Below, piece by piece: positions 5,111-53,170 of a DNA stretch of 64,000 nt (the first letter of the stretch is position 1; every line of letters starts with the position of its first letter). The stretch lies in IMG/VR virus record IMGVR_UViG_3300025912_000012, positions 71,080-135,079 of that record. One strand, written 5' to 3'. The position numbers and the translations under genes are program-made. The notes under the pieces were generated by a model, which was not told where the DNA came from, did not search any database, and saw only the letters and a program-made list of their open reading frames with translations. The DNA is from a virus (lineage: Duplodnaviria; Caudoviricetes).

Positions 5111-5111
5111 G

Positions 5112-8544: not shown

Positions 8545-9207
8545 TCAGTTTTTGCGAGCACGCACCCATTTCGGGTACGTCTCATCTATCTCTGAATGCA
8601 GCAGTGCAATCCCGTCCGGGTGCACGTTCCCCTCCGGGGGTTCTTCTCCCAGCATGGACAGCCTGGTGCCCGCGTTCACGATCGCGGGGAGGGTGAGTCT
8701 TTTCTCCCTCATCCCGGAGAAGCTCCCGACGAGCCGCCACTCCTGTGCTACCGTTCCCCGCCAGGGACGAGGATGCATCAGGTTCGGGGAGTACGCGCAC
8801 CAGCGCATCTCCATTCCCACGGGGACGTGAGCCTCCCGGGAGATCAGCCCCTGCACCGCAGCCTCGGAGGGAATCTCGTCAATCCCCCCGTGCATCACGA
8901 TGTCATCCTGTTCCGCATTCACTGCCTGTGCCAGGTATTCCCGCAATGCGTTCTTCTTTTCCAGGGCTGGAGCGTTCTGCGGGAGTTCATGCGCCTCCAC
9001 CCGGACGTGATTCCATCTTCCCCGGTAGGTTTCCCAGAGGTTACTCTCCGCGAAATGCAAAGGTTTCGGGGTCTTGTCAAGAGTTACCGCTGCCTCGCAG
9101 ATGACATGCACTACGTCAAGATCCTCAAGCTCAGTGAAACGTGCTTCGAGAAGTTGCAGGTCAGCCTCTGAGCTGACGATGACGCAATCGAAAACCCGCA
9201 TAGCCAT
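8545..9207 (-). CDS. GT17-like glycosyltransferase paralogue, DxD motif lost
   Basis: Aligns by eye with 28056-28832; GGIDEIP replaces SDVDEIP. Confidence 0.7.
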   Translation of the reverse strand: MAMRVFDCVIVSSEADLQLLEARFTELEDLDVVHVICEAAVTLDKTPKPLHFAESNLWETYRGRWNHVRVEAHELPQNAPALEKKNALREYLAQAVNAEQDDIVMHGGIDEIPSEAAVQGLISREAHVPVGMEMRWCAYSPNLMHPRPWRGTVAQEWRLVGSFSGMREKRLTLPAIVNAGTRLSMLGEEPPEGNVHPDGIALLHSEIDETYPKWVRARKN

Positions 9208-19092: not shown

Positions 19093-20226
19093 TTACCGAT
19101 TAGCCATCCTCTGAGCCAGCTCCGCGACAGCTGGTCCCATGTATTTCTCCGCGACATTATCAATACTATATGTTTCCGCGAATTCCCGCAGCTGCTTGCG
19201 GTCAATGTCACGGTTATCGTACGACTCGGTGAAGGCGTCAACCATTTGCTGAATATCAGGGCGGATCCACCAGCCTTTATGGACGCCATTCCAGAACGGG
19301 GTCCCGTCTATCTGGATCCCGTACGGGTTGAGTTCTTCCATGGAGGATGCCTTCGTGGTGATCACCGGGGTTCCGCAGGCTTGCGCCTCCATGATAGGGA
19401 GACCGAACCCTTCCGCGTACGTGCATGCCGCGAGCACGTCGATCGCGTGATACCAGTCTGCGAGTTCTTTCTGTGACACCATTCCCGCGTGATAGTGATA
19501 CTGGTCAGTAACCCGTATCCTGTCGGTGATCCCGAGGGATTCCGCGAGGAATTCCAGATCCTGACCTCCCTCGCTGTGAACCCCTGCGTGAACCGCGAGG
19601 ATGGCATCCGGGTGATCAGTGAGGAACTTCGCGAAAGCCAGGAACATCTCCGGGGCTGCCTTACGTACCGCATCGTTGTTCGCGGCATTGACCCCTATAA
19701 CGAACTCATCCTGCCGCAGACCGAACTTCTCCCGGATGGCTACCTTATCACCTCCCGGGGCATAAAGGTCCGTGTCGATCCCGTGAGGGACATACAGGGG
19801 GTTAAGCCCGGCGTCGGTGAACCTGTCCTTCCCGAAAAGGCTCATCGCGATCACCTCATCCCCGGTGGCATCCACGATGCTCTTGTCCGCAGCGGACATG
19901 GGACGGCAATCACACGGGAGCCAGTGAGCTACCGGGAGTTCCCGCAGGAGATTCGGGTCCATCACCCAGATATCCCCGAGAGTGATTATGATATCGGGGT
20001 TGAGGGCTTTCGCGTGCTCATAGAGACTGGCAGAGCAGTACGCGTGCCCGAATCCGGGGAGCACGGGGATTCCGTGCCATTCTGTCGGGCTACCGCTCAG
20101 TCCCCAGTAGGAGCTGATCGCGACCTCGTGACCCATTTCGATCAGTTTCCGTGTCCAGATTGCGGTCTGGTTCCCGTAACCCGAGGGAGCCCAGGGTGCG
20201 GTGGAATGCCAGAGAATAGAACTCAC
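19093..20226 (-). CDS. GT4 (GT-B) glycosyltransferase
   Basis: PHGID; EGFGLPIMEAQACG. Confidence 0.92.
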   Translation of the reverse strand: MSSILWHSTAPWAPSGYGNQTAIWTRKLIEMGHEVAISSYWGLSGSPTEWHGIPVLPGFGHAYCSASLYEHAKALNPDIIITLGDIWVMDPNLLRELPVAHWLPCDCRPMSAADKSIVDATGDEVIAMSLFGKDRFTDAGLNPLYVPHGIDTDLYAPGGDKVAIREKFGLRQDEFVIGVNAANNDAVRKAAPEMFLAFAKFLTDHPDAILAVHAGVHSEGGQDLEFLAESLGITDRIRVTDQYHYHAGMVSQKELADWYHAIDVLAACTYAEGFGLPIMEAQACGTPVITTKASSMEELNPYGIQIDGTPFWNGVHKGWWIRPDIQQMVDAFTESYDNRDIDRKQLREFAETYSIDNVAEKYMGPAVAELAQRMANR

Positions 20227-20919: not shown

Positions 20920-22272
20920 CTAGTACGTGGGAGTGCTGTTAATCAGGGTGACCGTCCCCGGTCCGAGTCCTCCCGAGCCCCCGATGTCCGTCGAGTTGGC
21001 GACACCTTCGAAACTGTTTCCGTATCCGATGAGCAGCTTATTCCGCATGATCTTCGACTTAACGTTTGCCACCTGGTTCGCGTTGAACGTGAGGGTGAAA
21101 GGCGTTCCCGCGTTGGGGATGCCCGCGTTGGTCACCGAGATGCTCATCGGAGCCTGCGCGTTGAGCAGCATCAGGTCCAGCGGAGCCTCAGAGTTCGTGG
21201 GATCCCACTGGATACTCCCGTCCATTGTCAGCGGTCCGCGACCGATAATGAACGGCTGCTGCGTTCCCGCGACAATCCAGTACACCTGGGTTGCACGCTT
21301 GAAGCTGACATCAAACTCCCCGATACCTGAGTAAGCTCCCGTGCTGCTTACAGTGTTACCCGCGACGACAACCGTGGAGTTCCAGTTGGGGATAGGGCGG
21401 GAGTTTGTCGTGGTATTAGTTACCGCGTTAGTCGCGACAGTGGAAATCCACGAATCACCCATCATCTTGATGTTCAGCAGCTGCTCCGCGTTCCCGGAGA
21501 AGTCCAGCGACTTAAGTACCCCGGAGGGGTACTGCCGAGCCCCGAAAGTGTTCGTCGGGGCAGTCCCGTAAGTAGCGCTCGTGAATACGTTGACTATGTT
21601 GGTTACATCCGTGAATGTGTGAGTCGGAGGCTGTGCGCCGTACGCTCCCCCGTATCCCAGGGGAGTGTTCAGTGCCGCGAAACGGTGGGTGAATGTGGTA
21701 CCGGCACAGAAACTGAACACGGTGTTTCCTGCCGCAAGACCCGAGTTGTGAGCGAAACGCAGCGGGGTGTTCGCGAACCCGATAGTGGATGCGGCAGTGT
21801 TGCTGATGATCACCACTTCGTTAAGATACGAAGCGGGTGTGTTAGTGGTGAGCGCAGTTCCCAGCTGGATAGCAGCACCCACGGTGAACTGCGAGGGAAC
21901 AGCGCTCACAGTGGCGACTGTCGCCCCTACCGCCAGCGAGCTGGAAACCGTCGTCGGGTTGGACACCGAGTTGCAGGTGGTGGAAAGGTCCCCGAAAACG
22001 TTGTCAAAGAAATATCCGTGGGAATCCAGGAAGTTAGGTCCCCCGAAAGAGAACGTACCCTGGTTAACCCCGATAGTCTTGTAAAACAAGTCCGTCATGC
22101 TTCCCCTGATGGCTTTATCATCAAGGAAATGCGGGGTGTCTTCTGGCTCGAATGAATTCTGATCCAGCGGGTGCGTGATAACCGGGTTTACCGGGGTGCC
22201 CGCTGTCAGTTCACGGGCAATCCCCAGCCAGGACAGGACGCCAGGGTACACGTTCGGTGTGCCAAGAGCCAC
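20920..22272 (-). CDS. major tail tube protein with inserted domain
   Basis: N-terminal WLGIARE..GT; position; Thr/Ser-rich insertion. Confidence 0.8.
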   Translation of the reverse strand: MALGTPNVYPGVLSWLGIARELTAGTPVNPVITHPLDQNSFEPEDTPHFLDDKAIRGSMTDLFYKTIGVNQGTFSFGGPNFLDSHGYFFDNVFGDLSTTCNSVSNPTTVSSSLAVGATVATVSAVPSQFTVGAAIQLGTALTTNTPASYLNEVVIISNTAASTIGFANTPLRFAHNSGLAAGNTVFSFCAGTTFTHRFAALNTPLGYGGAYGAQPPTHTFTDVTNIVNVFTSATYGTAPTNTFGARQYPSGVLKSLDFSGNAEQLLNIKMMGDSWISTVATNAVTNTTTNSRPIPNWNSTVVVAGNTVSSTGAYSGIGEFDVSFKRATQVYWIVAGTQQPFIIGRGPLTMDGSIQWDPTNSEAPLDLMLLNAQAPMSISVTNAGIPNAGTPFTLTFNANQVANVKSKIMRNKLLIGYGNSFEGVANSTDIGGSGGLGPGTVTLINSTPTY

Positions 22273-25061: not shown

Positions 25062-25077
25062 GTTAAATCACCTTTCA

Positions 25078-25404
25078 TCAAGGAACGTAATGTCCTTCTA
25101 GTTTATTTTTTTCCATTTCAGATTCGGGAACAGTATCCGCCCCGCATTTAGGGCAAGTCCTCGTCCAGGAATGATGGATCGTGTTACTGGGGCAGCTCGG
25201 GCACCACCTGCCCTGCGGACCGCCTTTGATGTACAGCTTCTCCGGACCGGCGTCCACGAGCCCGCCTTGTGCGTAATTGTTGTTCTTCAATGCCGCGAGG
25301 TGATGATCCGCCACATCTACGAAAGTTCCTGGTTTTGCCACGTACCTTGTCCCGTCCTGCGCCTTGAAACCCATGCAGCCAGGGGGAAGATTAACCCTCG
25401 TCAC
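25078..25404 (-). CDS. Zn-ribbon protein
   Basis: CPSC..CPKCG. Confidence 0.65.
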   Translation of the reverse strand: MTRVNLPPGCMGFKAQDGTRYVAKPGTFVDVADHHLAALKNNNYAQGGLVDAGPEKLYIKGGPQGRWCPSCPSNTIHHSWTRTCPKCGADTVPESEMEKNKLEGHYVP

Positions 25405-25411
25405 CGAGTTT

Positions 25412-25687
25412 TTACCCTTCAGTGGAAATGATGTAATTAACCGGGATCGTAGTAGAGGCAGTGTTCAGCCCGAATACGGTCGCACCCTGGGAACTCGGGA
25501 AAGTCTCGAACATTGTCGGGCTGGTCGCTACCCCGTATCCGTTACTTGCGGTAAGCCTTGAGCTTGTCCCGAGATACAGCTGTCCGGTGGCTGCCGTGGA
25601 ATAAAATGTGACACTGCATGCGCCCGGAGGGATGGTGAAAAGAGGTGCCGTACCGGCAACAGCAGCCTGCCCCATGATTATCGCCAT
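25412..25687 (-). CDS. small beta-sandwich virion decoration-like protein
   Basis: LYLG...LTASNG; resembles 33295 and 32736 ORFs. Confidence 0.6.
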   Translation of the reverse strand: MAIIMGQAAVAGTAPLFTIPPGACSVTFYSTAATGQLYLGTSSRLTASNGYGVATSPTMFETFPSSQGATVFGLNTASTTIPVNYIISTEG

Positions 25688-25694
25688 ACAGCTC

Positions 25695-26411
25695 CTAAAA
25701 CCTTTTAAGCACCCAGGACACATCTTTGTTGAATTTCCTTCTCAGCAGGGAAATCTGGTGCGGCATAACGGCAGCCCGCCACTGATGGAAAGCCTGCAAG
25801 TCAGATTTCCCGAACCAGTCCTCCGCGTAATGATACAATTCGTCGTATTCAGTTTCCGGGTCAACGGAATAATGATGATGCTCAATGACAACCTCGGGGA
25901 CATACCGGAGCAATCCTGAGCGCTTGCCTGTCTCAGCCCAGGCGTTATCGATGTAGTAATGACTGAAGCTTGCTTCCGCGAACTGCCCCATCACCTTTAC
26001 GATATCGCTGGAAATCATGATGATCTCAGGGATGTCATTCCTGCGCTTATCGTCCGGGTAAAGCATCCCTGTTCCGCCCATGCTTTCCAGCTTGCGGAGC
26101 ATGATCGTATCCCAGTGCGGGGTGCGGAATACATGGTCATTTCCTACGAACATCAGCGCGTCGTAATCATCCCAGAATGCCTGCGCAGTCCTGTTCAGCT
26201 TCTCGACGTTCGTCCCTCTCGGGGACAGGGTGCTGGTAAGAGCGCTTCCCCAGTCAATCCCGTTGTACGTATCCTCATCATCAGGGTCCATGATGAACAC
26301 GACATCCGCAGCGTCCGTGTTCTCCCTGTAAGAATCCAGCAGGCGCTCAACCTGCTTCCGGCGACCCCGGGTGGTAACCATGACAAGCAAGGTCAGATCT
26401 GACACGATCAT
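25695..26411 (-). CDS. GT2-like (GT-A) glycosyltransferase
   Basis: VTTRGR; DPDD; GNDH..TPHWD; HYYIDN; EHHH. Confidence 0.8.
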   Translation of the reverse strand: MIVSDLTLLVMVTTRGRRKQVERLLDSYRENTDAADVVFIMDPDDEDTYNGIDWGSALTSTLSPRGTNVEKLNRTAQAFWDDYDALMFVGNDHVFRTPHWDTIMLRKLESMGGTGMLYPDDKRRNDIPEIIMISSDIVKVMGQFAEASFSHYYIDNAWAETGKRSGLLRYVPEVVIEHHHYSVDPETEYDELYHYAEDWFGKSDLQAFHQWRAAVMPHQISLLRRKFNKDVSWVLKRF

Positions 26412-26414
26412 CTC

Positions 26415-27092
26415 CTAATTCCACCACTCAAAGTAATCGCCAACCTCTAGCGATTTCCCTGCGTGGACAGTTTTCAGCCCTTTGGGGCGGTAAAGACTTT
26501 CCGGGATGCACCGGAAGTCAAAGCTGACCCGGGTCTGACCGGTAGTGTTCAGCTTGTTCCCGTGTTCCCACTGGACCGCATCGAACGTGACGATATCCCC
26601 GTAGTCTGCCCGGATAGGGATGAATTCCTGGCTCCCCCAGGAGGATTCGATGTACACCGAGTTGCTTTCGAAAGCCTGAGTGAACGGAACCCAGTAATTG
26701 ATCTCCCCGGGGGAGTGGTTGTAATCCTCGTCCGTGTGAAACTCCCCGACCGCGACATTCCCCGGGAGGTGAACCCGGAACGTGGGGACATTCTGGTAAC
26801 AGAAAGGCTCATCAATGCGCGGGGCGATGATATTCTCTATGAGCTTCAGGTAATCAGCCCTGATCTCACTGAAATGATCATAGAATTTACGGTGAAACTC
26901 AGTGGACTGATCCGTCTTGCAGGACAGGACATCAATATCATCCCCGACCCCGAGGTTTTCCAGCTTGCCTACACTGAAAATCTCGCAGAGCAGCTCACGA
27001 AACCTGTATTCCCGCGTATCGTAGGTGAAAATACTAGGAGGAAACGTCTCTTCTGGTAGTGACACTTTCACGTCCTCTTGTGGCATGAGCAT
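26415..27092 (-). CDS. 2OG-Fe(II) oxygenase (StrG-like)
   Basis: HTD...HGN..N.TGQTRVSFDFR. Confidence 0.75.
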   Translation of the reverse strand: MLMPQEDVKVSLPEETFPPSIFTYDTREYRFRELLCEIFSVGKLENLGVGDDIDVLSCKTDQSTEFHRKFYDHFSEIRADYLKLIENIIAPRIDEPFCYQNVPTFRVHLPGNVAVGEFHTDEDYNHSPGEINYWVPFTQAFESNSVYIESSWGSQEFIPIRADYGDIVTFDAVQWEHGNKLNTTGQTRVSFDFRCIPESLYRPKGLKTVHAGKSLEVGDYFEWWN

Positions 27093-27150
27093 TCACAGGT
27101 CTTCGACTTGCATTTAGGGGCATGCTCCCCCAGCTGGCAGCGAATCGAGA

Positions 27151-28059
27151 TCATGAGTACCGCCAGGAGACGAGTTCTTTCAATCCTGTTTTCAGGTCAA
27201 CCTGAGGCTCCCACCCGAGTTGCTTTCTCGCGAGGGAGATGTCTGCCTTTTTCCGGGGACATGGGTCGATCTTCCTGACCGGACCGTATTCTGGCTGCAA
27301 ATCCGATCCCATGATCTCCAGCAGCATCCCTGCCAGGTCAGTGAGAGTTGTCTCTATCCCTGAGGCGATGTTGAACGCACCCACGACATCGCTTTGCGCT
27401 GCGAGGATGTTAGCTCTCGCCACATCCCCGACATACACGAAATCGCGAGTCGCAGTTCCGTCACCTTCGATATACGGGGGGAGTCCAGCGGAAATCCTGT
27501 CCATCCACCTGGGGAGAACCTCCGTGTAAATCCCGCTGACATCCACCCGGGGGCCGTAAACGCTGAAATACCGCAGCATCACGCAGTCCAGGTCAAGACT
27601 GCGTGCTATCCCCTCGGTGAACGCTTTCCCTGCCCCGTATAGCGTCGTATCGTTGTACGAGTGATGTTTCTCGTTCGTGGGGAACTCGTCCGCAAGCCCG
27701 TAGATACTGGAGGAACTCGCGGCTACGACCCTGGCTTTCGCTCTTTTCGCAGCCTGGAAAACGTTGAGAGTCCCTGTCGCAATCACATCAATCCCCAGCT
27801 GGGGGTCTTCCGCGCACTGCTTGATTTTCACCGCAGCCTGATGGAAAACGTAATCAACTCCGTACATCAGGCTTTCAAGCAGTTTCTCATCGCGGATATC
27901 ACCCAGGTAGAACTGAGTTCCCGGAGGGACATTCTTCCTGTCTCCCCCGGAGAGGTTGTCCAGGACGAAAACTTCCGCCCCTGCCTCGATGAGCTGATCA
28001 GCGATATGACTCCCGATCAGTCCTGCTCCTCCGGTGATCAGGCACCGTGAGCCTTTCAT
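27151..28059 (-). CDS. NAD-dependent epimerase/dehydratase (extended SDR)
   Basis: TGGAGLIG; SSSSIYG; YGAGK. Confidence 0.95.
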   Translation of the reverse strand: MKGSRCLITGGAGLIGSHIADQLIEAGAEVFVLDNLSGGDRKNVPPGTQFYLGDIRDEKLLESLMYGVDYVFHQAAVKIKQCAEDPQLGIDVIATGTLNVFQAAKRAKARVVAASSSSIYGLADEFPTNEKHHSYNDTTLYGAGKAFTEGIARSLDLDCVMLRYFSVYGPRVDVSGIYTEVLPRWMDRISAGLPPYIEGDGTATRDFVYVGDVARANILAAQSDVVGAFNIASGIETTLTDLAGMLLEIMGSDLQPEYGPVRKIDPCPRKKADISLARKQLGWEPQVDLKTGLKELVSWRYS

Positions 28060-28832
28060 TTACGTTCCCCTTCAGGACGGAACCATTCTTGCGGGCAGTG
28101 ACGTTCCTGAATCCACAAAGGGAGATCGCCAGTTCCCGTAGGACGCATCTGGGTGGTCAGCCCGAAAGGCTTCCCGTCCTCCCAGGAGCGTCCCTGCTCG
28201 TACAGCAGGCCCGCGTCAGCCCATTCCAGCATCTGGCTGGTAGTTTCAGTGTGAGAGGTTGCGAGAGCTTTCTCCTTGATGGCTTCCACTCCCCCGAGCC
28301 AGGAGAAATGCCATCCCGCCCCGGGAATGCGCGGGAAGAAATTCCTCATGTTGCGCATTCTCTCGAAATCAGTGATGTCTTTCATCTTCGCGGTCACCGG
28401 ACCGCACCAGGGGAGCGGATGCAGCCAGTCAACGGCGAAATTATGGAATGACATTTCCAGCGCCCGGTTGGGAGGGAGGAATTCTGCGACGATCTCGTTG
28501 CGGGGAATCTCATCCACATCGGAAAGCATGATCAGGTCATCACGATCCGCATCCCCGAGCCCCTGCATGAGATGCCTGCGATGCGCGATAGCACGACGAT
28601 GATTATCCCCGGGGACATCCAGGTCTTTCGCAGGGAGCATGACGTGAATGATCTTGTCTTCCCATGCCGCGAAACGTTCCCTGTTCTCAGCGTAATAGAA
28701 AGGCTTCGGGGCACCCTGATGGGTAGCGGCAGCTTCCGCCAGGACATGCTTAAGGGGAATATCTTCCAGTTCCCTCAGTCTGCATTCCAGGAGGTCAAGC
28801 TCATTATGAAACAGGAAGCAGTCGTAAATCAA
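28056..28832 (-). CDS. GT17 family glycosyltransferase
   Basis: IYDCFLFHNELDLLECRL; SDVDEIP; GWHFSW. Confidence 0.85.
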   Translation of the reverse strand: MIYDCFLFHNELDLLECRLRELEDIPLKHVLAEAAATHQGAPKPFYYAENRERFAAWEDKIIHVMLPAKDLDVPGDNHRRAIAHRRHLMQGLGDADRDDLIMLSDVDEIPRNEIVAEFLPPNRALEMSFHNFAVDWLHPLPWCGPVTAKMKDITDFERMRNMRNFFPRIPGAGWHFSWLGGVEAIKEKALATSHTETTSQMLEWADAGLLYEQGRSWEDGKPFGLTTQMRPTGTGDLPLWIQERHCPQEWFRPEGERK

Positions 28833-29407
28833 CGTGCAGCCTCGCTGGAGGCAGACCATCTTGCCTTCACGTGAGCAGCGAAAGCGTGCAGGATTGCCTG
28901 ATGCGCGGTTTCCACCACTCCGTAATCATGCACGTCCGCTTCCACGTGCACCGATACGTCAGCCCGTTCACGCGCCTTGCCCCCGGTGAACCCGGTAAGC
29001 GAGACCGACTTCAGCCCGTTGTCGCTCGCGTATTCCAGTGCCCGGATGATGTTCGGGGATTTCCCCGAGGAGGAGATGGTGAGCAGCATGTCGCCAGTTC
29101 GGGCAAGCATCTCCAGCTGGCTGGAGAACACGTTCTCGTATCCATCATCGTTTCCTGCGGCGGTAATCAGCTCCGGGCTCTGCCCCAGGGAGATGGCATG
29201 CAGTCCCGCTTTCGCGAAATCGTTGGCTGCGTGATTCGCCAGCCCTGCGGACCCGCCATTCCCGCAAAGGAACACGAACCTGCCCATCCTCCGGGTGTTC
29301 AGCAGCATTCCTGCTGCTCTTTCCAGGTCTGCGGGGTCCATTGCCTTGCAGGCGATGTCAACCCCGGAAGTCAGGTCATTCAGTTGCTCGCTTAGCGTTT
29401 GATTCAT
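28829..29407 (-). CDS. gmhA: SIS-domain phosphoheptose isomerase
   Basis: CGNGGSA; GNDDGY; ISSSGKSPN; E..HQ..LH. Confidence 0.88.
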   Translation of the reverse strand: MNQTLSEQLNDLTSGVDIACKAMDPADLERAAGMLLNTRRMGRFVFLCGNGGSAGLANHAANDFAKAGLHAISLGQSPELITAAGNDDGYENVFSSQLEMLARTGDMLLTISSSGKSPNIIRALEYASDNGLKSVSLTGFTGGKARERADVSVHVEADVHDYGVVETAHQAILHAFAAHVKARWSASSEAAR

Positions 29408-29847
29408 TCCGCTAGCATAGCAGAAATCCTAGCGAGAACAGCGGGGGTTCCAGCCTCGATCATGTCAAGCGCATGAGCAAAATCAGCAGGTCCCCCGAAG
29501 AAAGGATCAGGGATTTCCTCATCGCAGAACAGGTGCACCCTGTCATCCCCGCCAAGCTCCCGGAGATCTGCAAGGTTCTTCTTGTCCATGGCGAAAAGCA
29601 GGTCCCGTTCGGTGAGCCACGAAGACTGGAACTGCCTAGCTATATGCCCTGACCCGTCGTAACCTCGATCAGCCAGTGCTTTCTGGGATTCGATGTGCAT
29701 CGGGAGACCAGCATGTCCCGTGTTAGTACCCGCGCTGTCCACGATGACATCCCTGATACCGGCACGAGCCAGCTCAGCACGCAATACGATTTCAGCCAGC
29801 GGGGAGCGGCAGATGTTACCCAGGCAGACGAAACAGACGCGGATCAT
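29404..29847 (-). CDS. low molecular weight protein-tyrosine phosphatase
   Basis: VCLGNICRSP; DSAGT; IPDPF. Confidence 0.93.
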   Translation of the reverse strand: MIRVCFVCLGNICRSPLAEIVLRAELARAGIRDVIVDSAGTNTGHAGLPMHIESQKALADRGYDGSGHIARQFQSSWLTERDLLFAMDKKNLADLRELGGDDRVHLFCDEEIPDPFFGGPADFAHALDMIEAGTPAVLARISAMLAE

Positions 29848-30413
29848 ATCCTCACCCACCACAGCGCAGACTCGTCGTTGGCATCGAAACACCGGGCGAC
29901 ACCCTCGGAAACCGGGGGATATTGATAGTCATCTCCGCAGAAAATAGCGCCCTCGACCGCGAACGGGAGAAATGCCCTGATATTATCCGCAACCTCATCA
30001 GCGGTGTGCATCGCGTCAATATGAAGAAACCTGACAGGTCTCGTCCACTGTGCCGCGAACTCCCGCCATCCCATCTTCCAGATCTGAACGTTACCCTGGG
30101 TGCCTTCCCTGACGTTCTCCTGGAATATCCCGTGATTGTCCCTGGAGATGATTTCCTGTGTCAGCCCGATCGCGGAGAGACTCCCTGCGTGGTCATGAGG
30201 ATCGTATCTCTCATCTCCGTTGAGCACCTGCTGCCAGTCCCAGTGATCAACTGCGTGCAAGACTTTCGGGTAAACAGCGTTCGCGATGGGGATCGCGGAG
30301 AGACCCTGATGCACCCCTATCTCAATAACCTCCCCAGGGAGGTCATTCGTGGATGCCGCCAGTTCCGCAGTCCTGCTGAGCTGACCTTCGCTGATCCAGT
30401 GCTCGTCAAACAA
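29844..30413 (-). CDS. class I SAM methyltransferase (Methyltransf_24-like)
   Basis: EIGVHQG; LHIDAMH; GDDY. Confidence 0.85.
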   Translation of the reverse strand: MFDEHWISEGQLSRTAELAASTNDLPGEVIEIGVHQGLSAIPIANAVYPKVLHAVDHWDWQQVLNGDERYDPHDHAGSLSAIGLTQEIISRDNHGIFQENVREGTQGNVQIWKMGWREFAAQWTRPVRFLHIDAMHTADEVADNIRAFLPFAVEGAIFCGDDYQYPPVSEGVARCFDANDESALWWVRI

Positions 30414-31443
30414 GGAAACTCCTGACCGCATCAATGACCTGCCCGAGATCATCGTCAGTCATATCGGGATACAGGGGGAACGTGACCAGGGTTTTCCATA
30501 CCCTGTCCGTGACGGGGAGTTTCTTGTGTTCCCCGAAAATCCTGTGCAGGTTGAGTGGCTTGTAGTGCACTCCTGCTGATACCCCGCGAGAATACATGTG
30601 AGTGATCAGGCTGTCCCTGTGCTGCGTTCTCGCCACGAACATGTGCCAGGAGGAGTTCTCATCCCACTCGGGGAGTCTCAGCCAGTCCAGGTCGCTGAAT
30701 TCTTTCATATAGGTCAGCACGATCTTCCTGCGCAGCTCGTTCATCTCGTCCAGCCGCTGGAGCTGAGCCAGGGCAATAGCTGCGGTGATATCGTTCATGT
30801 CCGCTTTCCAGCCAGGGTCGGGAATGCTGTAATCCCAGCCTTTGCGGTCAATCCCGAACCTGCGGAGTCTCCGTAGTCTCGCGGCAAGTTCCCCGTCAGG
30901 AGTGGTGATCATCCCGCCATCCCCGGAGGCGAGGTTTTTCACTGCATTGAACGACCAGCAGGCGACATCCCCGATCTGCCCTGCAAGCATATTGCCAGCA
31001 GCATGAGCGCAATCTTCGATAATCCACCCGGAGGGGAAAGAACGAGGGGAGTTCACGGTCCCCCCGTACCATACCGGGATGATCGCGGCAGTCCGCTGGG
31101 TTTCCTTGCTTTTCACGTCATCCCAGTCGATGCACAAGGTATTCTCATCGATGTCCGCGAGAACGACCCTACCCCCGCTGTGCAGCACTGAGAGTCCCGT
31201 AGCGGCGAATGTCAGCGCGGGCATGATAACTTCCCCGTCGCGTACCCCGAGAGTCTCCAGAGCGAGCTGGAGGGCTGCAGTGCAGTTGCTCACGGCAACT
31301 GCATGCCGGGAACCGGTGTATTTCGCGAACTGTTCTTCCAGTTCCTCAACAACAGGACCCATCGACCAGAATCCGCTGCGGAGAACCCTGGTGACATTCT
31401 GAATCTCAAGGTCAGAGCAGCTGGGCTTGAAAAGCGGGATCAC
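30406..31443 (-). CDS. DegT/DnrJ/EryC1/StrS sugar aminotransferase
   Basis: EDCAHA; SFNAVKNL..GDGG. Confidence 0.95.
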   Translation of the reverse strand: MIPLFKPSCSDLEIQNVTRVLRSGFWSMGPVVEELEEQFAKYTGSRHAVAVSNCTAALQLALETLGVRDGEVIMPALTFAATGLSVLHSGGRVVLADIDENTLCIDWDDVKSKETQRTAAIIPVWYGGTVNSPRSFPSGWIIEDCAHAAGNMLAGQIGDVACWSFNAVKNLASGDGGMITTPDGELAARLRRLRRFGIDRKGWDYSIPDPGWKADMNDITAAIALAQLQRLDEMNELRRKIVLTYMKEFSDLDWLRLPEWDENSSWHMFVARTQHRDSLITHMYSRGVSAGVHYKPLNLHRIFGEHKKLPVTDRVWKTLVTFPLYPDMTDDDLGQVIDAVRSFLV

Positions 31444-32105
31444 CGGATCGCACCCGACTCGTATTCGTGCTCGACTTCGCGGATAACTTTCGCAGGATTA
31501 CCCGCGACCACCGTGTATTCGGGAACGTCTTTCGTGACCACCGAGCCAGCCCCGATAATCGACCATCTCCCCAGGGTGAGGTTCGGGAGGATCGTCGCGT
31601 TCGTCCCGACGTAAACTCCGTCCTCGATGTCCACGCATCCTGAGATGGAGACGGCATGCGCGATGAAACATGAGTCCCCGACCCAGCTCTCGTGAGAGAC
31701 GAGGGCAGCCATATGGATACTTGTATTGTCACCAATAGCTGCTGACTGCTGGATATGCACGCCTTCCTGGACATACAACCCGACCCCGAGCTGCACGCCT
31801 TCCAGGTCAACCCCCGGGTCGATCAGGTTCGCGAACCGGCAGCCTTTATCCGCGAGCACCCGCGATGTCTTGTAGCGACTCGCGCAGTTACCGCTGACCA
31901 GGTTGACGAACGACACATCGAACAAATCGAGAACTGTGAGGACATCAATCCCCGTTACCGGATATCCCGCGAACATCGTTCCCCGTTTGGCAGGATCGTC
32001 ATCGATGAACCCGAGGATCTCCAGGTTCGGGTCAGCTGCCGTAACCCTGCGGAGCAGCCGCTCCACGTGAGGGTTGGATGCGCCATAGAGAGCTATCCGC
32101 GTCAT
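31440..32105 (-). CDS. PglD/NeuD/VioB-type sugar acetyltransferase
   Basis: N-terminal Rossmann-like GFIDD; hexapeptide repeats; VVAGNPAK. Confidence 0.92.
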   Translation of the reverse strand: MTRIALYGASNPHVERLLRRVTAADPNLEILGFIDDDPAKRGTMFAGYPVTGIDVLTVLDLFDVSFVNLVSGNCASRYKTSRVLADKGCRFANLIDPGVDLEGVQLGVGLYVQEGVHIQQSAAIGDNTSIHMAALVSHESWVGDSCFIAHAVSISGCVDIEDGVYVGTNATILPNLTLGRWSIIGAGSVVTKDVPEYTVVAGNPAKVIREVEHEYESGAIR

Positions 32106-32677
32106 GGGGTTATCTTAGCAGGAACCTTATGGACGATCGCGAGTCCGTAGCGGAACAGGACTGAATCGCACTCCCCGTCCCGGGTTTTCAGCAGCTCCAG
32201 CAGGGATGTCATCGTGCTGATCATCTCTGGTTCGTACTGGGTGGGGACCAGTCCGTGGAACCCTACGTACCAGTCTTCGATAACGTAGTAACCACCGGGG
32301 GCAACCTGGGGCCACAGGATTTCGAAGGTTCTCTTCGAGAGTGTCCCGTTATGGCTGGCATCTTCAACGATCAGGTCGAAGGGACCGAGTTCAGCAAGTG
32401 AAAGGTCATCCTGGTTCTTGACAACTTTCACTGTTCCCTGTGGCCATATAGCCGCCTGGTTGCAATCCACCCCGGTGATTGTTCCCAGCGGGAAAAGCCC
32501 CTGCCACATCCGCAGGGATTCCCCCTCGTAAACCCCTACTTCACAGACGTTCCCGAAAGGACCGATATCTGCGGCAATCTTCAGGTACTCCCGGAAGTAT
32601 CCGTGCGGTTCGATCTTATCTGTCTCGATATAGCTGGGCACCTGTATTCCTGCGGAATACGGATACAAGTAAGCCAT
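32102..32677 (-). CDS. sugar O-methyltransferase-like (MycE-like)
   Basis: TDK..HGY; EVGV..GESLRMW; EDASH; PGGYYVIED. Confidence 0.8.
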   Translation of the reverse strand: MAYLYPYSAGIQVPSYIETDKIEPHGYFREYLKIAADIGPFGNVCEVGVYEGESLRMWQGLFPLGTITGVDCNQAAIWPQGTVKVVKNQDDLSLAELGPFDLIVEDASHNGTLSKRTFEILWPQVAPGGYYVIEDWYVGFHGLVPTQYEPEMISTMTSLLELLKTRDGECDSVLFRYGLAIVHKVPAKITP

Positions 32678-32735: not shown

Positions 32736-33257
32736 CTAGAGAACGCCGCCGCGAACGGAAATCTGCCCGAAAGTGGGGGCAACCGCGTAAATCAGGTCCG
32801 TTGTCCCGTGCGCATACAGTGCAGGGGTGGACGTGGAAACCGTGGTTGTCCCGACCGAGGTGGCAACATTGAGAACCTCCAGGTTGGAGGTCCACTGAGT
32901 GTTCGCGATAATGAACTGCGTCCCCGGGGGGAGTGCCGTGACCGCACCAGCAGAGAAAATCTGAGTGGTGCTGCCCGCAGTGGAGGCACTGCTCACCGTC
33001 CCGAGCAATGTACCCTGGCTGATCGCAGAAATCGCGTACAGCGGGGTGAGCACATTAGTCAGGAACACCGGCTTCGTCCTCGGGGGGATGGGGAGTCCGC
33101 TGGTGGTGGTGACGTTTGCCTGCCCCACGTAAACAGTGTTATTCCCGTTGTTGTGCAATTCAACCGTGTTCGGGGCACTCGTTGACGGGGTGAACAGCCA
33201 CGTCGGGGTGTAAGACAGGTTTACCCAGTTCGGGGAGCCTGGAGGAAGGTTAGCCAT
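32736..33257 (-). CDS. head decoration-like protein with inserted domain
   Basis: HNNGNNTVYVG..VTTTSG; downstream of capsid. Confidence 0.6.
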   Translation of the reverse strand: MANLPPGSPNWVNLSYTPTWLFTPSTSAPNTVELHNNGNNTVYVGQANVTTTSGLPIPPRTKPVFLTNVLTPLYAISAISQGTLLGTVSSASTAGSTTQIFSAGAVTALPPGTQFIIANTQWTSNLEVLNVATSVGTTTVSTSTPALYAHGTTDLIYAVAPTFGQISVRGGVL

Positions 33258-33294: not shown

Positions 33295-33615
33295 TTAGAT
33301 AACGGAGACAACCGAGCCATACCCAATGGACACGTTCAGCCCGCCAGCAGGCGATGCGGCAGCAAACCCGTAAAGGATAGTGCTGTTCGGGACCTGGCAC
33401 TCGGTAAGTACTACAGAAGAGCCAGTCGGAAGCCCGAAGCTGGTGGTCGTAGCTGCACTGGTAACCCCGGTCCCGAGGGCGATGAAGCATGTGCTCGCAC
33501 CGCTATTGGTCACGACCAGATCACGCTGGTAGCCAGTTGTCGAAGTCGTGTAAAGCGCTGTTGACGTAGTAGCAGCAGCAGTAACGACTGTCTGGTAAGA
33601 GGTAGCGATAGCCAC
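33295..33615 (-). CDS. head decoration-like small beta protein
   Basis: Thr/Ser-rich; immediately after capsid. Confidence 0.6.
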   Translation of the reverse strand: MAIATSYQTVVTAAATTSTALYTTSTTGYQRDLVVTNSGASTCFIALGTGVTSAATTTSFGLPTGSSVVLTECQVPNSTILYGFAAASPAGGLNVSIGYGSVVSVI

Positions 33616-33736: not shown

Positions 33737-35650
33737 TTAACTGAAAGGCGTAATATCGCTGACCTGGAGTCCCTGGAGGATTCCGCTGTACATAGGAGCA
33801 TGCGCAACGAGAGTCCCGAGGAGGAAAATGGAGTAGCGGAAGGAAGCGTCAATGACAGGCCATGCGACACTAACGTAATCCTGCACGCAGGTCATTTCCC
33901 ACGCATTGTCAACGTGGCTCCACGTCTGCGGGAGCTGGTAGCTCATAAGCAGCGCGGTGCCCTGGCTCATCCACGGGTGGACAGTCAGCTTGACAGTGCT
34001 CCTGGTGACCGGGTTGACGAACTCTGCAACCGCAGCGCCAGCACGAATGCCGCCGATCTGCGACTGGTCGATGTTCAGCAGGTAGTTAAGAGCGCTACCC
34101 TGGTTGAGCATGTCATTTGCGAGCCTCATGAGGTCGCCACCATCAGCGACAATCTCAGAAGGATCAGCCTTGAACACGCCCGGGGTGACATTGTTCATGC
34201 CATTGTTTTCCCACAGGGCATCCAGTGCGGTGAAAATGACGTTAGTGCTCAGGTGAGTTCCGACGCTCTGGTTGACATATCCGCCCTTCCAGACGTTCCC
34301 GCCTCCGAACCCGACGTTAGAGTAGGGACCGCTACCGGTTGCGGAAAGCCCGGTGAGAGTGGGGATAAGCCCCTCCATCCGGTTTCCGGAACCCGTTCCG
34401 GTGTCTGTGGTCGGGAAAGAACCGTTAGCGGACGTGGGGTCAGCACCCTGGATAGTGAACCGGATACCACCGACAGCGTTCGCGGTCTGCGCACCGCTGG
34501 TGGTGACTCCTGCCTGCACGGTGGTTCCTGCCATCAGGAATACGGTGGCAGAGTTACCTGCGTAGTAAAGGTTGTACTGCTGGGCTCCGGTAACTGGCGC
34601 AATGGTTACGTCAATAACCTGACCAGCGGAAGTGGTGACAGTCGCGGCAGTGCTAGCGGCAGTCTCCCCGAAGTAGTTCAGCGCGGAGACCCTGACACGG
34701 GCAGTACCAGTGGTTCCGACAGCAGTCTCATTCGATCCTGCAGTACGGGCAACCAGAGTGGGGGCGCTGGGAGTAGCCAGAGGCTGGGAAGACCCAGCAA
34801 TCATCTGGTACTCTTCACCCAACATCATCTCCTGGAGAAGCACCAGGTTTGCCAGGGCAGAAATATCTTCGAATCCCTGACCTTCGAACTGAGCGAGCCA
34901 CGAGAGCGACTCAGTAAGCCCGAAGAAACGGTAAGGGACATTCAGCTTGAACTCAGTCTGCTTACCAGAACCCGGGAGGTTCATGGGCCACTGAGTGCTC
35001 GCCATCGTCCCGCCTGCCTGGACCAGCTCAGGAATGGAGATGTCAATAACGCCCTGACCCCCGGTCTGGGAGCCGCTGACCCCGAGCAGACCGTAGACCT
35101 GGCGGGAAGCACCCTGACCGGCAGGACGGGGGAACTTGTTGCGGAAAAGGGTATATACCGGGTAGATGAGCCTCGACGGTGCGAGCAGGTCAAAGGGGAC
35201 CAGCCCATAGGGAGCACCGTTAAGCCCCAGGTTTCCCGCAGTGAAAGACTTCCCGAGAGCAGCGTCCTGAGACTTGCGGACTTCCGCGTCATTGTTCAGC
35301 TGCATTCCCAGACCCTTGTACTGCTGGGGTGCCTGCCGCCACAGCTCAGGGTTAATCCGGGATACGGTGTCAGCGGAATTCCACCGACCGTCAAAAGCAG
35401 CAGCCCTGGTATCGAGAATCGCCTGATGCGACTTGGACAGGATCTGGGTGCTGTGGGCTCCCTCACTGAGGGGACGCCCGTCATTGGTAATGTGCCCGAC
35501 ACCCTTGACAAGGGACTTGGTAAGGGTAGTCATCGTACCCTCGTAGTCGGACCGGCGAGCTACGCGCTCACCGAAAGCGCTCGCACTGCCAGCAGAGGAC
35601 CCGCCCATTCCTGGGGCGGTAACCTCATCGGCTGTAAGAACGTCAGCCAT
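33737..35650 (-). CDS. major capsid protein with Thr/Ala-rich insertion
   Basis: SD GGAG before MADVLT; follows protease/scaffold; HPWMSQGT and LVAHAP C-terminal motifs. Confidence 0.8.
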   Translation of the reverse strand: MADVLTADEVTAPGMGGSSAGSASAFGERVARRSDYEGTMTTLTKSLVKGVGHITNDGRPLSEGAHSTQILSKSHQAILDTRAAAFDGRWNSADTVSRINPELWRQAPQQYKGLGMQLNNDAEVRKSQDAALGKSFTAGNLGLNGAPYGLVPFDLLAPSRLIYPVYTLFRNKFPRPAGQGASRQVYGLLGVSGSQTGGQGVIDISIPELVQAGGTMASTQWPMNLPGSGKQTEFKLNVPYRFFGLTESLSWLAQFEGQGFEDISALANLVLLQEMMLGEEYQMIAGSSQPLATPSAPTLVARTAGSNETAVGTTGTARVRVSALNYFGETAASTAATVTTSAGQVIDVTIAPVTGAQQYNLYYAGNSATVFLMAGTTVQAGVTTSGAQTANAVGGIRFTIQGADPTSANGSFPTTDTGTGSGNRMEGLIPTLTGLSATGSGPYSNVGFGGGNVWKGGYVNQSVGTHLSTNVIFTALDALWENNGMNNVTPGVFKADPSEIVADGGDLMRLANDMLNQGSALNYLLNIDQSQIGGIRAGAAVAEFVNPVTRSTVKLTVHPWMSQGTALLMSYQLPQTWSHVDNAWEMTCVQDYVSVAWPVIDASFRYSIFLLGTLVAHAPMYSGILQGLQVSDITPFS

Positions 35651-35683
35651 ACGAATTCTCCGATCTTGGAGCGAACTCAATAA

Positions 35684-47845: not shown

Positions 47846-47885
47846 AAGATAATCTCCTTAACTATGACAGCACCGGTTCCACTGT

Positions 47886-48468: not shown

Positions 48469-49161
48469 TTATACGGAGACAGTACCCCGCACCGCAAGGA
48501 CTGTTTTGATATCGTCAGCCATGCAGGTCTTGCGCCAGGAATAATACTTGTCGCGATCAGCGATCAGTTTCTCCCCGGAATCTTTTGATGTCTTATCTGC
48601 TTTCCATACATGTTTCACGGAAATGGCGCGTAGATGCCGGATGCACCCGGCACCCATTCCCAGGTCAGCCCATACGTTATCGATGTACCAGTGATCCAGG
48701 TCAGGGAGTGCCATCCACCCGAGGGCTTCTACGATATTGCTGGACACGCAGACAGCCTCAGGGATGTCTTCCCGCACTCCGTCCCAGGGGTAAGTGAACC
48801 CGACCCCCCCCATGCGGATAATTCCCCGGATGAGGGCACGATCCCATCCCGGGGTTTCCGGAACCATGTCATCCCCGAGGGACGCGAGATACGGGTAATC
48901 CTTGTACCGCAATCTCGCGATCTCATTTGTCCACGCGGTCAGTCCCATTCTCTGACCCACATCGAGGAAATCCCCGTCGCGTCCCGCTTTGCTCATGATG
49001 AACTTGTAGCGCTCAAGCTCAGGATCGTCATCGTCCACGCATACATGGAGATGAGTTTTCATTTTCGCGGTATCATGCACCGCATCAAGCAGCCTCGCGA
49101 TGTTCTGCGGACGATTACGGGAAGGGACGATTACGAGCAGGTCACCCATAGGGTCACTCAT
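48469..49161 (-). CDS. GT2-like glycosyltransferase
   Basis: VPSRNRP; VDDDD; LGDDM..TPGWD; HWYIDN; paralogue of 25695. Confidence 0.82.
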   Translation of the reverse strand: MSDPMGDLLVIVPSRNRPQNIARLLDAVHDTAKMKTHLHVCVDDDDPELERYKFIMSKAGRDGDFLDVGQRMGLTAWTNEIARLRYKDYPYLASLGDDMVPETPGWDRALIRGIIRMGGVGFTYPWDGVREDIPEAVCVSSNIVEALGWMALPDLDHWYIDNVWADLGMGAGCIRHLRAISVKHVWKADKTSKDSGEKLIADRDKYYSWRKTCMADDIKTVLAVRGTVSV

Positions 49162-49288
49162 CTGCGGGGTCTTCCTCTGCTTCTCTCGGGGCTTTAACCC
49201 ATTCTTTCAGGTACATCTCCCGATGATGCGGGTTATCCCAGTCGAGATCGTCGTCTTCCAGGAGCTGCCTCAACCTCGGGTTAGACGT
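49154..49288 (-). CDS. 44-aa acidic microprotein (start uncertain)
   Basis: Fills the gap; GGAG SD then ACG; overlaps both neighbours. Confidence 0.4.
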   Translation of the reverse strand, partial: TSNPRLRQLLEDDDLDWDNPHHREMYLKEWVKAPREAEEDPADE

Positions 49289-49454
49289 GATATCTCCCAA
49301 ATTGCGGGTTCCCTTTTTTGTCACGTTTGACAACCTTTAGCACTGTCACCGGTCGGTTCTTCGGGATAAGATTCCCTTTTCTGTCATAGCAGGCACCCGT
49401 GTGCCCGTTCAGGGCGCGGCATCCACGGGTCTTACGGCATCTCGTGTTGATCAT
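49281..49454 (-). CDS. small basic Cys/His protein
   Basis: ATGA coupling; C..C..GH.GAC. Confidence 0.5.
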   Translation of the reverse strand: MINTRCRKTRGCRALNGHTGACYDRKGNLIPKNRPVTVLKVVKRDKKGNPQFGRYHV

Positions 49455-50062
49455 GCCCGGATTATACCAAGCCCGTACCTCCCGGGGAGGTTCTCCCAGG
49501 TCTTCCCCGTAGCGGCGCAGTACACGTCGAGAGCCTCCTGAACCGGGGGGACGGTACCCTTCCAGTCGTACCCAGGCCACCCGATAAGGTTCGTGTCGTG
49601 GAACAACGCGACACCTTTGTTCGAGAGCCTAGGCATGTACGCGTATAGCTCAGCGAGAGTATGCTCATACTCGTGGGAGGTGTCTATGAACAGGACATCC
49701 ACCTGGGGGGGAAGCTGCGCCTGAACGAATTCATCCATGTCGTCACCCTGGATGAATGTCCATCTCGGGGTTTTCCGCCAGGGACGCATTCCCGCAGGGT
49801 CATCCGCGACAGGATCGATATCCACGGATACGACATGCCCGTCAGAATAGACAGCTGCCGCAAGGAAAGCGAGAGTAGAATTCCCTTTCCGTGACCCGAG
49901 TTCCAGCACTCGCACGTGCTCGTAAGATTTCGCGGTCTCATACAGGTACGGGAGATATTCCTGGATATCGCTCCATCTTCCCAGGCGGTCCATGTACCCG
50001 TCGTGGAGAGTGCTCGTGATCGCGTCCAGCGCGATGTCATACACCCTGCGGAGCGCCATCAC
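49451..50062 (-). CDS. class I SAM methyltransferase (Methyltransf_24-like)
   Basis: LELGSRKGNS; FIDTSHEY; FHDT. Confidence 0.88.
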   Translation of the reverse strand: MMALRRVYDIALDAITSTLHDGYMDRLGRWSDIQEYLPYLYETAKSYEHVRVLELGSRKGNSTLAFLAAAVYSDGHVVSVDIDPVADDPAGMRPWRKTPRWTFIQGDDMDEFVQAQLPPQVDVLFIDTSHEYEHTLAELYAYMPRLSNKGVALFHDTNLIGWPGYDWKGTVPPVQEALDVYCAATGKTWENLPGRYGLGIIRA

Positions 50063-51718: not shown

Positions 51719-51884
51719 TTTGAATCCTCCTCATTGGCAGTGTAGCAGTTACACCCTGCGTAATGACGGAAAGAATCAGTCCCGGGGCATCCGCAGTTCT
51801 CCCGGTGCTCCCCTGGGCAGGTTGTTCCTATCCATCTCCAGACGCAGGGAATGCGATCATCGTCAGGGAGGGGCGTCCACGAGG

Positions 51885-53042: not shown

Positions 53043-53170
53043 CTCCAGGTGGGCACAAAAGACCCATCGTCTTATATATAGCACAGCTTAAAACTTTAAT
53101 CAAGCACCATGCCCGCGACGTGTGCCTGGCTGATAAAAAATTACCCCAGGTCGTGCTGACGATGGCAGTT

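Follow-up and report, generated by a model that had tools for sequence, protein, structure and literature searches.

A variable sugar-gene island in the head operon of an uncultured soil phage, with a proposed role in virion glycosylation

The ten-gene island

The window analysed here, a stretch of 64,000 nucleotides, is the final 64 kb of an IMG/VR record of 135,079 bp from a tailed phage (IMGVR_UViG_3300025912_000012) that is estimated to be 88% complete. The GC content of the window is 57.7% and a tRNA array lies at its left end. Positions 25695-32677 are filled exactly by ten co-directional open reading frames (ORFs) on the minus strand, the late strand, encoding sugar-modifying enzymes and glycosyltransferases. 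A preliminary description of this DNA had named a tightly coupled ten-gene cassette inserted between paralogous decoration genes, and had proposed that the phage makes its own amino-sugar and heptose donors for a virion glycan. The coupling was borne out, as start and stop codons overlap by 4 nt at four junctions (MT1/acetyltransferase, acetyltransferase/aminotransferase, phosphatase/isomerase and GT17a/epimerase), a fifth overlap of 4 nt joins MT2 to the phosphatase if the latter starts at ATG 29847, and the widest intergenic gap is 58 nt. Sites resembling promoters or terminators were no commoner in the island than in shuffled sequence. We propose that these genes are transcribed together and make up a single functional glycan island of the late structural operon. 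In the direction of transcription they are as follows.

32102..32677, minus strand: MT1, first island gene, Methyltransf_24 class, probable sugar O-methyltransferase (PF13578, 34 bits; phrog_21658)
31440..32105, minus strand: hexapeptide N-acetyltransferase, probably of the NeuD/PglD/PerB/VioB class, left-handed beta-helix (4-nt overlaps with both neighbours)
30406..31443, minus strand: DegT/DnrJ/EryC1 sugar aminotransferase dependent on pyridoxal phosphate (PF01041, 308.7 bits against a cut-off of 19.8)
29844..30452, minus strand: MT2, Methyltransf_24 (PF13578, 53 bits)
29404..29892, minus strand: phosphatase with the fold of low-molecular-weight protein tyrosine phosphatases (LMW-PTP), likely start ATG 29847 (PF01451, 104.7 bits)
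28829..29407, minus strand: SIS-domain sugar-phosphate isomerase, GmhA-like (PF13580, 59 bits; phrog_14703, 125 bits)
28056..28859, minus strand: GT17a, GT17-family glycosyltransferase (PF04724, 84.8 bits against a cut-off of 26)
27151..28059, minus strand: GalE-type NDP-hexose 4-epimerase of the short-chain dehydrogenase/reductase (SDR) family (PF01370, 167 bits)
26415..27092, minus strand: StrG-like PhyH-family Fe(II)/2-oxoglutarate (2OG) oxygenase (assigned from fold and invariant residues; Pfam silent)
25695..26411, minus strand: GT2a, divergent GT2-like GT-A glycosyltransferase, last (3') island gene (phrog_14945, E 3e-25)

Eight of the ten functional labels in the preliminary description were supported by Pfam, PHROGs and NCBIfam; those of the oxygenase and GT2a needed further analysis and were upheld by fold and structure neighbours. 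The acetyltransferase scored 156.4 bits against TIGR03570 (NeuD/PglB/VioB), slightly short of the cut-off of 160.8, and matched PerB (1.6e-22), VioB (2.6e-18) and PglD (about 4e-11) among PDB sequences. The top PDB match of the aminotransferase is ArnB (1.9e-59), followed by a scyllo-inosose aminotransferase. MT2 matches the methyltransferase half of a family of glycosyltransferase-methyltransferase fusions (phrog_2675/Pas34). The phosphatase carries the CX5R(S) P-loop as CLGNICRS and a DP motif (IPDPF). The isomerase has a clear SIS_2 domain and scored 103 bits against TIGR00441 (gmhA), under the cut-off of 209. GT17a carries a DxD motif (SDVDEIP); its family was present in none of 14 control prokaryote genomes.

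The closest solved relatives of the island SDR are UDP-Glc/GlcNAc 4-epimerases (1e-47, PDB). Its signature, SSSSIYG...YGAGK, contains neither the TDE of 4,6-dehydratases nor the SE of UXS/ArnA decarboxylases, and this catalytic motif rules out a 4,6-dehydratase or an ArnA/UXS-type decarboxylase.

The oxygenase matched TIGR04324 with an E value of 1.7e-15 and 57 bits, far under the 150-bit cut-off, and is 47% identical across 91% of its length to proteins named StrG in their source records. Residues H119-x-D121, H177 and R188 (HxD...H...R) are invariant in 31 homologues. The AlphaFold model (pLDDT 91) is a double-stranded beta-helix for which the top Foldseek matches were SptF, PtlH, AndA, SnoK/SnoN and human PhyH (probability 1.00, TM 0.45-0.52); phmmer against PDB returned nothing. 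A TET-like DNA enzyme and a protein prolyl or lysyl hydroxylase were ruled out by the fold, together with the DegT neighbourhood of the homologous genes in bacteria described below.

The Atlas structure neighbours of GT2a are GT2 proteins and fusions of the GT2a fold to methyltransferases (TM 0.83-0.91). The family has an invariant DxDD (D42-x-D44-D45), and its profile searched against PDB sequences retrieved only PglI, at E 0.14. A hydropathy scan revealed no membrane-type segment in the ten island proteins. Over 17 glycan and flanking proteins the top 19-residue hydropathy mean was 1.62, a peak that belongs to the P-loop of the phosphatase.

Position within the structural operon

The island lies in an operon read on one strand in the order large terminase (54285-55976), a five-gene glycan module, Thr-rich small proteins, portal-MuF-Nudix fusion, protease-like gene, probable capsid gene, d106, d173, island, d103, zinc-finger protein, SAP-domain protein, and neck and tail genes. 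The structural genes on which the argument depends are listed here.

33737..35680, minus strand: probable major capsid protein, 647 aa (position after the portal and protease-like genes; Atlas neighbours)
33295..33615, minus strand: d106, small Thr-rich paralog of the d173 N-domain (hhalign 98% against the d173 and d103 families)
32736..33257, minus strand: d173, two-domain beta-sandwich virion-type protein, upstream flank (AlphaFold pLDDT 88)
25412..25723, minus strand: d103, small Thr-rich paralog, downstream flank (hhalign 96-98%; follows GT2a in relatives)
20920..22272, minus strand: p450, probable major tail (tube) protein (role from position and a match to the Mystique tail tube)

The feature neighbours of the capsid protein in the Atlas include clusters with SU10_MCP in 15% of members. 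Profile-profile comparison confirmed the paralogy of the flanking genes, with hhalign probabilities of 98%, 98% and 96% for the homology of d106, the d173 N-domain and d103. The further statement that they are decoration genes is plausible from fold and position, and that role is best read as a prediction. The model of the d173 N-domain is jelly-roll/cupin-like with Z of about 7-8, a common fold. The C-terminal beta-barrel resembles surface insertion domains of tail-tube, capsid and baseplate proteins (Z 10-12), with matches to the Mystique tail tube (Z 11.9), VP1 capsid chain M (Z 9.9), the P22 coat I-domain (Z 8.1), the JBD30 baseplate and the Chi tail tip. The same module is inserted at about residues 100-190 of p450 (hhalign 97.4%, E 1e-11, family against family), where it has an extra Thr-rich loop in the window and in some relatives. 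It is plausible from these models that d173 and p450 are outward-facing proteins. A weak cupin match had raised an FdtA/RmlC-type sugar isomerase as a candidate identity for d173, which was rejected in view of its two-domain virion-type beta-sandwich and the paralogs of its N-domain that flank the slot.

In almost every relative, as in the window (24399-25404, minus strand), d103 is followed by a pair of conserved Cys-rich proteins. One is a zinc-finger protein of 108 aa, and the other, of 220 aa, combines zinc-ribbon-like CxxC pairs with a SAP DNA-binding domain at its C-terminus; such proteins are unusual between head and neck genes.

A variable slot across the phage family

Relatives were retrieved with the capsid protein and comprise 77 IMG/VR loci, all uncultured, on which the window proteins were mapped and the ORFs of the slot clustered. 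The order capsid, dA (~106 aa), dA (~170 aa), dB (~93 aa) and zinc-finger protein is kept across the family. In the clade of about 55% identity all five genes usually lie side by side. Where relatives have no sugar genes the flanking paralogs adjoin each other, so the island is a true insertion, as the preliminary description had supposed.

In nearly all loci of the clade of about 70% capsid identity, the space between the second dA and dB is taken by sugar genes. A homologue of GT2a (44-59% identical) is the last sugar gene in all but one of the slots read from this clade, usually adjoining the d103 homologue. The other contents are highly variable, with at least 12 sugar-gene architectures in about 22 loci. 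These include an SDR with a sugar C-methyltransferase and a cupin; DegT with a TDE-type 4,6-dehydratase; a methyltransferase with one or two SDRs; an extra GT2 with a protein like the reversibly glycosylated polypeptides (RGP/GT75); GT17 with two SDRs; UDP-galactopyranose mutase with an SDR and a methyltransferase; and GT2a alone. The gene set of the window recurs only in locus L005, whose capsid protein is 93% identical, and there minus MT2, a strain-specific gene missing from every one of the 77 loci. MT1 is present in the islands of L012, L014, L015, L021 and L022 as well. At about 8.7 kb the slot of the window is the longest of all.

In one subclade of the ~55% group, SDR and GT2 genes instead follow the zinc-finger gene, indicating that sugar genes entered the head-neck block at two sites. 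Among the near-complete (96-100%) relatives with an empty slot, which are 97-108 kb in length, four of five have no GT1-family or GT2a/b-type gene anywhere, GT17 not being among the searches, and all eight island-bearing records tested carry both a GT1-family and a GT2a-type gene. This pattern of presence and absence indicates that the glycan system is an accessory trait of part of the family. Where present, the genes are maintained: the ratio of nonsynonymous to synonymous substitution rates (dN/dS) between the window and L005 was 0.11-0.20 for the nine shared island genes (0.11 for MT1, which is 85% identical, and 0.19 for the aminotransferase) and 0.06-0.23 for structural neighbours. The low values indicate that the island genes are kept by purifying selection.

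Several further observations were made on the relatives. The slot of L015 (15858-16862) and that of L060 (both cluster c34) hold a gene homologous to PF03214 ('reversibly glycosylated polypeptide', E 1.5e-40), the plant UDP-arabinopyranose mutase/GT75 family; a member of this family would be unusual in a phage. The UDP-galactopyranose mutase in the island of L067 (15443-16393; PF03275) suggests a galactofuranose-containing glycan in that strain. The capsid match of L028, L055, L065, L067-L069 and L074-L076 spans 2.5-2.8 kb compared with 1.9 kb, and only the C-terminal two thirds is in one piece; in L016, L027 and L061 a LAGLIDADG/HTH homing-endonuclease-like ORF lies just after the capsid gene. 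The capsid gene of some relatives may carry an intron, intein or homing-endonuclease insertion.

Cultured relatives are distant only. No nucleotide-level match was found among cultured phages, and the portal protein is 24-32% identical to its counterparts in phages of Thermoanaerobacterium, Arthrobacter, Brevundimonas and Alicyclobacillus. An actinobacterium is the probable host, because the GT2a homologues are almost confined to phages of Streptomyces, Arthrobacter and Actinoplanes and because the closest cellular relatives of the oxygenase are all from Actinomycetota. IMG/VR labels the relative L016 (record IMGVR_UViG_3300036790_000811) a provirus and, if the label is correct, its flanks could name the host of the family.

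Glycan genes elsewhere in the record

The island belongs to a set of about 20 glycan genes of the record, all in the structural half. Four more transferases, three more methyltransferases and a second epimerase-family SDR lie elsewhere, giving six transferases at five or more sites; every GT1, GT2-like and GT17 match in the 135-kb record falls in the structural half. We propose that the outlying transferases, methyltransferases and SDR2 belong to the same glycan system as the island. The preliminary description mentioned neither this wider system nor the hypervariability of the slot.

48469..53084, minus strand: second glycan module, five genes, directly after the large terminase, comprising the next five entries
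51885-53084, minus strand: GT1/4
50801-51718, minus strand: 305-aa gene with no assigned function
50059-50808, minus strand: class I methyltransferase
49451-50062, minus strand: Methyltransf_24/rhamnosyl-O-methyltransferase-like
48469-49161, minus strand: GT2b, 32% identical to GT2a
19093..20226, minus strand: GT4-type glycosyltransferase (phrog_2170, E 6.5e-39; PF00534, 55 bits)
8545..9207, minus strand: GT17b, second GT17-like gene, after a 1517-aa tail protein (PF04724, 49.9 bits)
4097..5110, plus strand: SDR2, epimerase/dehydratase family (PF01370, 153 bits; 27% identical to the island SDR; no TDE)

The GT4 gene sits between p121, by position a probable tail assembly chaperone, and the neck and tape-measure genes; a copy 59-64% identical is found in the ~70% clade, and none at that spot in relatives without the island. 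GT17b is 32% identical to GT17a and its DxD is degenerate (GGIDEIP). SDR2 overlaps a dCMP/cytidine deaminase gene (5079-5573), the pair (4097-5573, plus strand) being on the strand opposite to the structural operon. Thr-rich small proteins are encoded after the second glycan module at 47126-48407.

Predicted sugar chemistry

No match to PF00483 (NTP_transferase) or PF01467 (cytidylyltransferase-like) was found in the 135-kb record. No heptose kinase, GmhB or sugar kinase surfaced in the record, no direct search having been made for a kinase or GmhB. Only two PF01370 genes are present, with the motifs SSSSIYG and SSSMVYE, neither of which is TDE, and SDR2, like the island SDR, is also without the SE of the decarboxylases. 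Since the record has neither a 4,6-dehydratase nor a nucleotidyltransferase, the amino-sugar and heptose branches would start from host intermediates. For lack of a TDE dehydratase, the DegT aminotransferase and the N-acetyltransferase would have to receive a 4-keto sugar nucleotide from the host, and the product of the GmhA-like isomerase would need host activation enzymes in the place of a nucleotidyltransferase and kinase. The gene content thus points to a phage that re-tailors host sugar nucleotides, the donors not being built from scratch. The proposal that the phage makes its own donors does not agree with these results. The route from SDR through DegT to a PglD-type enzyme stands in part, in that an aminotransferase gene and a probable NeuD/PglD-class gene are present, but the SDR is a GalE-type 4-epimerase. 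Self-sufficiency varies within the phage family, as the relative L013 has a TDE-type dehydratase (STDEVYG) adjoining DegT.

StrG is assumed to act in the N-methyl-L-glucosamine branch of streptomycin synthesis, its chemistry not being established, and no paper on that chemistry was found. Of 69 bacterial loci with a gene for the StrG-like oxygenase, about half have a DegT homologue within 10 kb of it, and a hexapeptide acetyltransferase is frequently nearby as well; this neighbourhood argues that the oxygenase acts on an amino sugar. The resemblance to antibiotic genes raises the question of whether the sugars are destined for host or non-structural phage proteins, or for a small glycoside resembling a secondary metabolite. 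The gene content (StrG, a StrS-like aminotransferase and methyltransferases) is in accord with such a target, as are the 47% identity of the oxygenase to StrG-named proteins of streptomycin-type producers, the DegT and SDR genes that adjoin the StrG-like gene in Streptomyces griseus, and the scyllo-inosose aminotransferase that is the second-best solved relative of DegT. However, no aglycone or cyclitol genes, exporter or resistance gene were seen, none of the 69 bacterial loci contains the entire cassette, and a surface glycan fits the position and variability of the genes better. We give these other targets the least credence of the explanations considered.

The phosphatase gene is translationally coupled to that of the SIS isomerase. 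By analogy with the isomerase-phosphatase-nucleotidyltransferase sets that serve DNA glycosylation in phages RB69 and DLP3 (bioRxiv 10.1101/2025.06.16.659550), the enzyme could be a sugar-phosphate phosphatase.

These assignments suggest the following scheme. The soluble island enzymes would act in the cytoplasm late in infection on sugar nucleotides of the host. The DegT enzyme would aminate a host-made 4-keto sugar, the PerB/VioB-like transferase would N-acetylate the resulting amine, and the StrG-like oxygenase and one or two methyltransferases would modify the sugar further. The epimerase would provide a 4-epimeric hexose or N-acetylhexosamine, probably for the coupled GT17a, while the SIS isomerase and phosphatase would channel a heptose-type or related sugar phosphate into host activation. 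Finally, GT2a and GT17a would put the sugars on new virion proteins, either ahead of assembly or in the course of it. What we infer from the gene content is which sugar is made, in what order the steps run and, most of all, that the acceptor is a virion protein.

Candidate acceptors of the glycan

Cytoplasmic glycosylation of virion proteins is the best reading of the genes, and we assign it a probability of roughly 0.55. The virion is favoured because the five or more sites at which transferases occur are all among structural genes, and because presence and absence across relatives follow an all-or-none pattern. The placement among structural genes is a repeated one, since the second site used by the subclade of the ~55% group is in the same head-neck block. 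Virion proteins are likewise the best-supported class of acceptor, as the preliminary description had it, because the island proteins are soluble, parts for membrane export are absent and no tyrosine integrase was found, because genes for precursors of DNA glycosylation are absent, and because there is precedent in the mycobacteriophages Che8, Corndog and Myrna. The surface beta-barrel module shared by d173 and p450 is a possible common acceptor.

Several results weigh against virion glycosylation. An acceptor signal was not found, the Ser/Thr content of dA and dB not being raised in phages that bear transferases: that of dA is slightly lower (p 0.03, in the wrong direction) and that of dB does not differ. 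Since this test was negative, the Thr-richness of the flanking proteins is no evidence for an acceptor. The module of d173 and p450 is also found in relatives without the island. The pathway is incomplete in a record that is 88% complete, as described above. No BLAST similarity connects the transferases and methyltransferases of this phage with Corndog gp35-38; when 14 glycan proteins were compared by BLASTP with Corndog gp34-38 and gp41, chance matches only were obtained, the best with E 0.003 across 33 residues. Among cultured phages the homologues closest to GT2a are in Streptomyces phages of cluster BE, where they lie with a nucleotidyltransferase among replication or lysis genes. Lastly, late expression by itself is compatible with DNA glycosylation, which occurs shortly before packaging.

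The cluster BE phages (L002, Blueeyedbeauty genes 76-78; L085, EGole genes 35-37) have two GT2a-type transferases outside the structural operon, accompanied by a small nucleotidyltransferase resembling RfaE domain II. No paper on glycosylation in these phages was found.

The position of these homologues outside structural operons in cultured Streptomyces phages would also be expected if the enzymes were directed at the host, changing its sugar-nucleotide pool or its wall or surface polysaccharides at a late stage of infection. The effect might be, for instance, to keep progeny from binding debris, to prevent superinfection or to help release, and the target of the LMW-PTP would be the tyrosine-kinase control of polysaccharide synthesis in the host. 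Such remodelling is consistent with the reliance of the phage on host precursors, with the occurrence of LMW-PTPs such as Wzb, GmhA, DegT and acetyltransferases as typical members of bacterial surface-polysaccharide loci, and with the origin of the StrG-like oxygenase and its closest relatives in carbohydrate clusters of Actinomycetota. Nevertheless, no membrane-type segment was present in the 17 proteins checked, as would be expected of a flippase, polymerase, polyprenyl-phosphate transferase or Gtr-type component, and the island proteins are all soluble. Moreover, the glycan genes are scattered, at five or more sites, only among virion genes, and lysogenic conversion is unlikely since no tyrosine integrase was found. 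Remodelling of the host surface is therefore considered unlikely, although it deserves to be kept in view.

A second alternative is that the tailored sugars are placed on modified bases of the phage DNA before packaging, allowing it to evade host nucleases. Late glycosylation of phage DNA with phage-made NDP-sugars is known (bioRxiv 10.1101/2025.06.16.659550), the GT-MT fusion family bears the PHROG label 'DNA methyltransferase', GT2a homologues are among the replication genes of cluster BE phages, and the record lacks about 12% of the genome. Against this, the record contained no match to PF00303 (ThyA family) or PF00145 (C5 DNA methylase), so that a hydroxylase or hydroxymethylase of the thymidylate-synthase family and a C5 DNA methylase are both lacking from it. 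The fold of the oxygenase is that of the small-molecule PhyH enzymes, associated with DegT in bacteria, and is not TET/JBP-like. The half of the record with early or replication genes is free of transferases, and near-complete relatives with the same replication-type genomes lack the three transferase types searched. The preliminary description had allowed for DNA modification as an alternative; on these results it is retained as a very improbable one.

With virion glycosylation as the preferred reading, the variable slot may be viewed as a serotype island: uncultured soil phages would carry in the head operon an O-antigen-like locus, with a conserved anchor transferase and exchanged cassettes, that gives the particles of close relatives chemically different glycans, made by re-tailoring sugar nucleotides of the host. 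We advance this tentatively, at a little under even odds.

Implications and comparison with known systems

Glycosylation of the particle is known in a few mycobacteriophages only, via transferases and one methyltransferase. If the present reading is correct, tailed phages can furnish their own coat with tailored sugars of rare amino and methylated kinds, and within one phage family the chemistry of that coat evolves fast and can be exchanged. The glycan coat would be optional, as near-complete relatives are without it, and the diversity of virion glycans would evolve by swapping of cassettes, like that of bacterial surface antigens. Such a system would bear on the survival and sticking of particles in soil, on recognition by hosts, decoys or immune systems, and on the interpretation of 'auxiliary metabolic' sugar genes in viromes. 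For glyco-engineering the system offers compact soluble enzymes, namely a prokaryotic GT17, a StrG-like oxygenase and a virus-specific GT-A family.

The gene content and the clade-specific variability of the sugar sets resemble the fibril clusters of the Megavirinae (Mimivirus and relatives), which hold 6-33 genes with nucleotide-sugar pathways and transferases (Notaro et al. 2022, PMC10117803). The virion surface of these viruses receives rare amino sugars of bacterial type that the viruses make themselves, N-acetylated 4-amino-4,6-dideoxy sugars among them (PMC10117803). They differ in that they are giant viruses of eukaryotes with complete pathways including the dehydratase, the glycans are chemically proven and the genes lie outside a head-tail operon.

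The succession of a DegT enzyme and a probable NeuD/PglD-class beta-helix N-acetyltransferase, here translationally coupled, is that of the VioA/VioB, PglE/PglD and perosamine/PerB routes. Unlike those routes, there is no 4,6-dehydratase, and the aminotransferase is closest to ArnB. ArnB acts on a 4-keto pentose. The oxygenase is comparable to StrG and to the 'sporadic carbohydrate cluster 2OG-Fe(II) oxygenase' of TIGR04324 in its identity of 47% to StrG, its HxD...H...R residues and its DegT and acetyltransferase neighbours in bacteria. As in the O-antigen and capsule loci of bacteria, the flanks are conserved, one gene serves as anchor and genes for sugar pathways and transferases are exchanged as cassettes; unlike those loci, there is no Wzx/Wzy, ABC exporter or polyprenyl-phosphate priming transferase, the proteins are soluble and the setting is a viral head operon.

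The virion glycosylation genes of mycobacteriophages are the closest in function. According to the passages of two later articles that describe Freeman et al. 2023, Cell Host Microbe (PMC11600133, PMC12363180), Che8, Corndog and Myrna glycosylate capsid and tail-tube proteins, and Che8 and Corndog use phage glycosyltransferases for this purpose. The same passages place an O-methyltransferase just upstream of three tandem glycosyltransferase genes in cluster O phages such as Corndog. Corndog genes 35-38 sit just upstream of the capsid protease gene. Like Corndog gp35-38 and Che8 gp110, the system described here has an actinophage-type setting of soluble glycosyltransferases and an O-methyltransferase within a structural operon. 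It differs in having no detectable sequence similarity to Corndog gp35-38 at the level of BLASTP, and the glycans of Che8 and Corndog capsids and tail tubes are demonstrated whereas those of the present phage are predicted. No description of a variable sugar island in the head operon of a tailed phage was found in a search of the literature that was not exhaustive. Beyond the mycobacteriophage set, this phage has an aminotransferase, an N-acetyltransferase, an epimerase, a 2OG oxygenase, a SIS isomerase and a phosphatase, with six transferases at five or more sites and a slot that is hypervariable across the family; the new points are this hypervariable, anchored architecture and the predicted dependence on precursors from the host.

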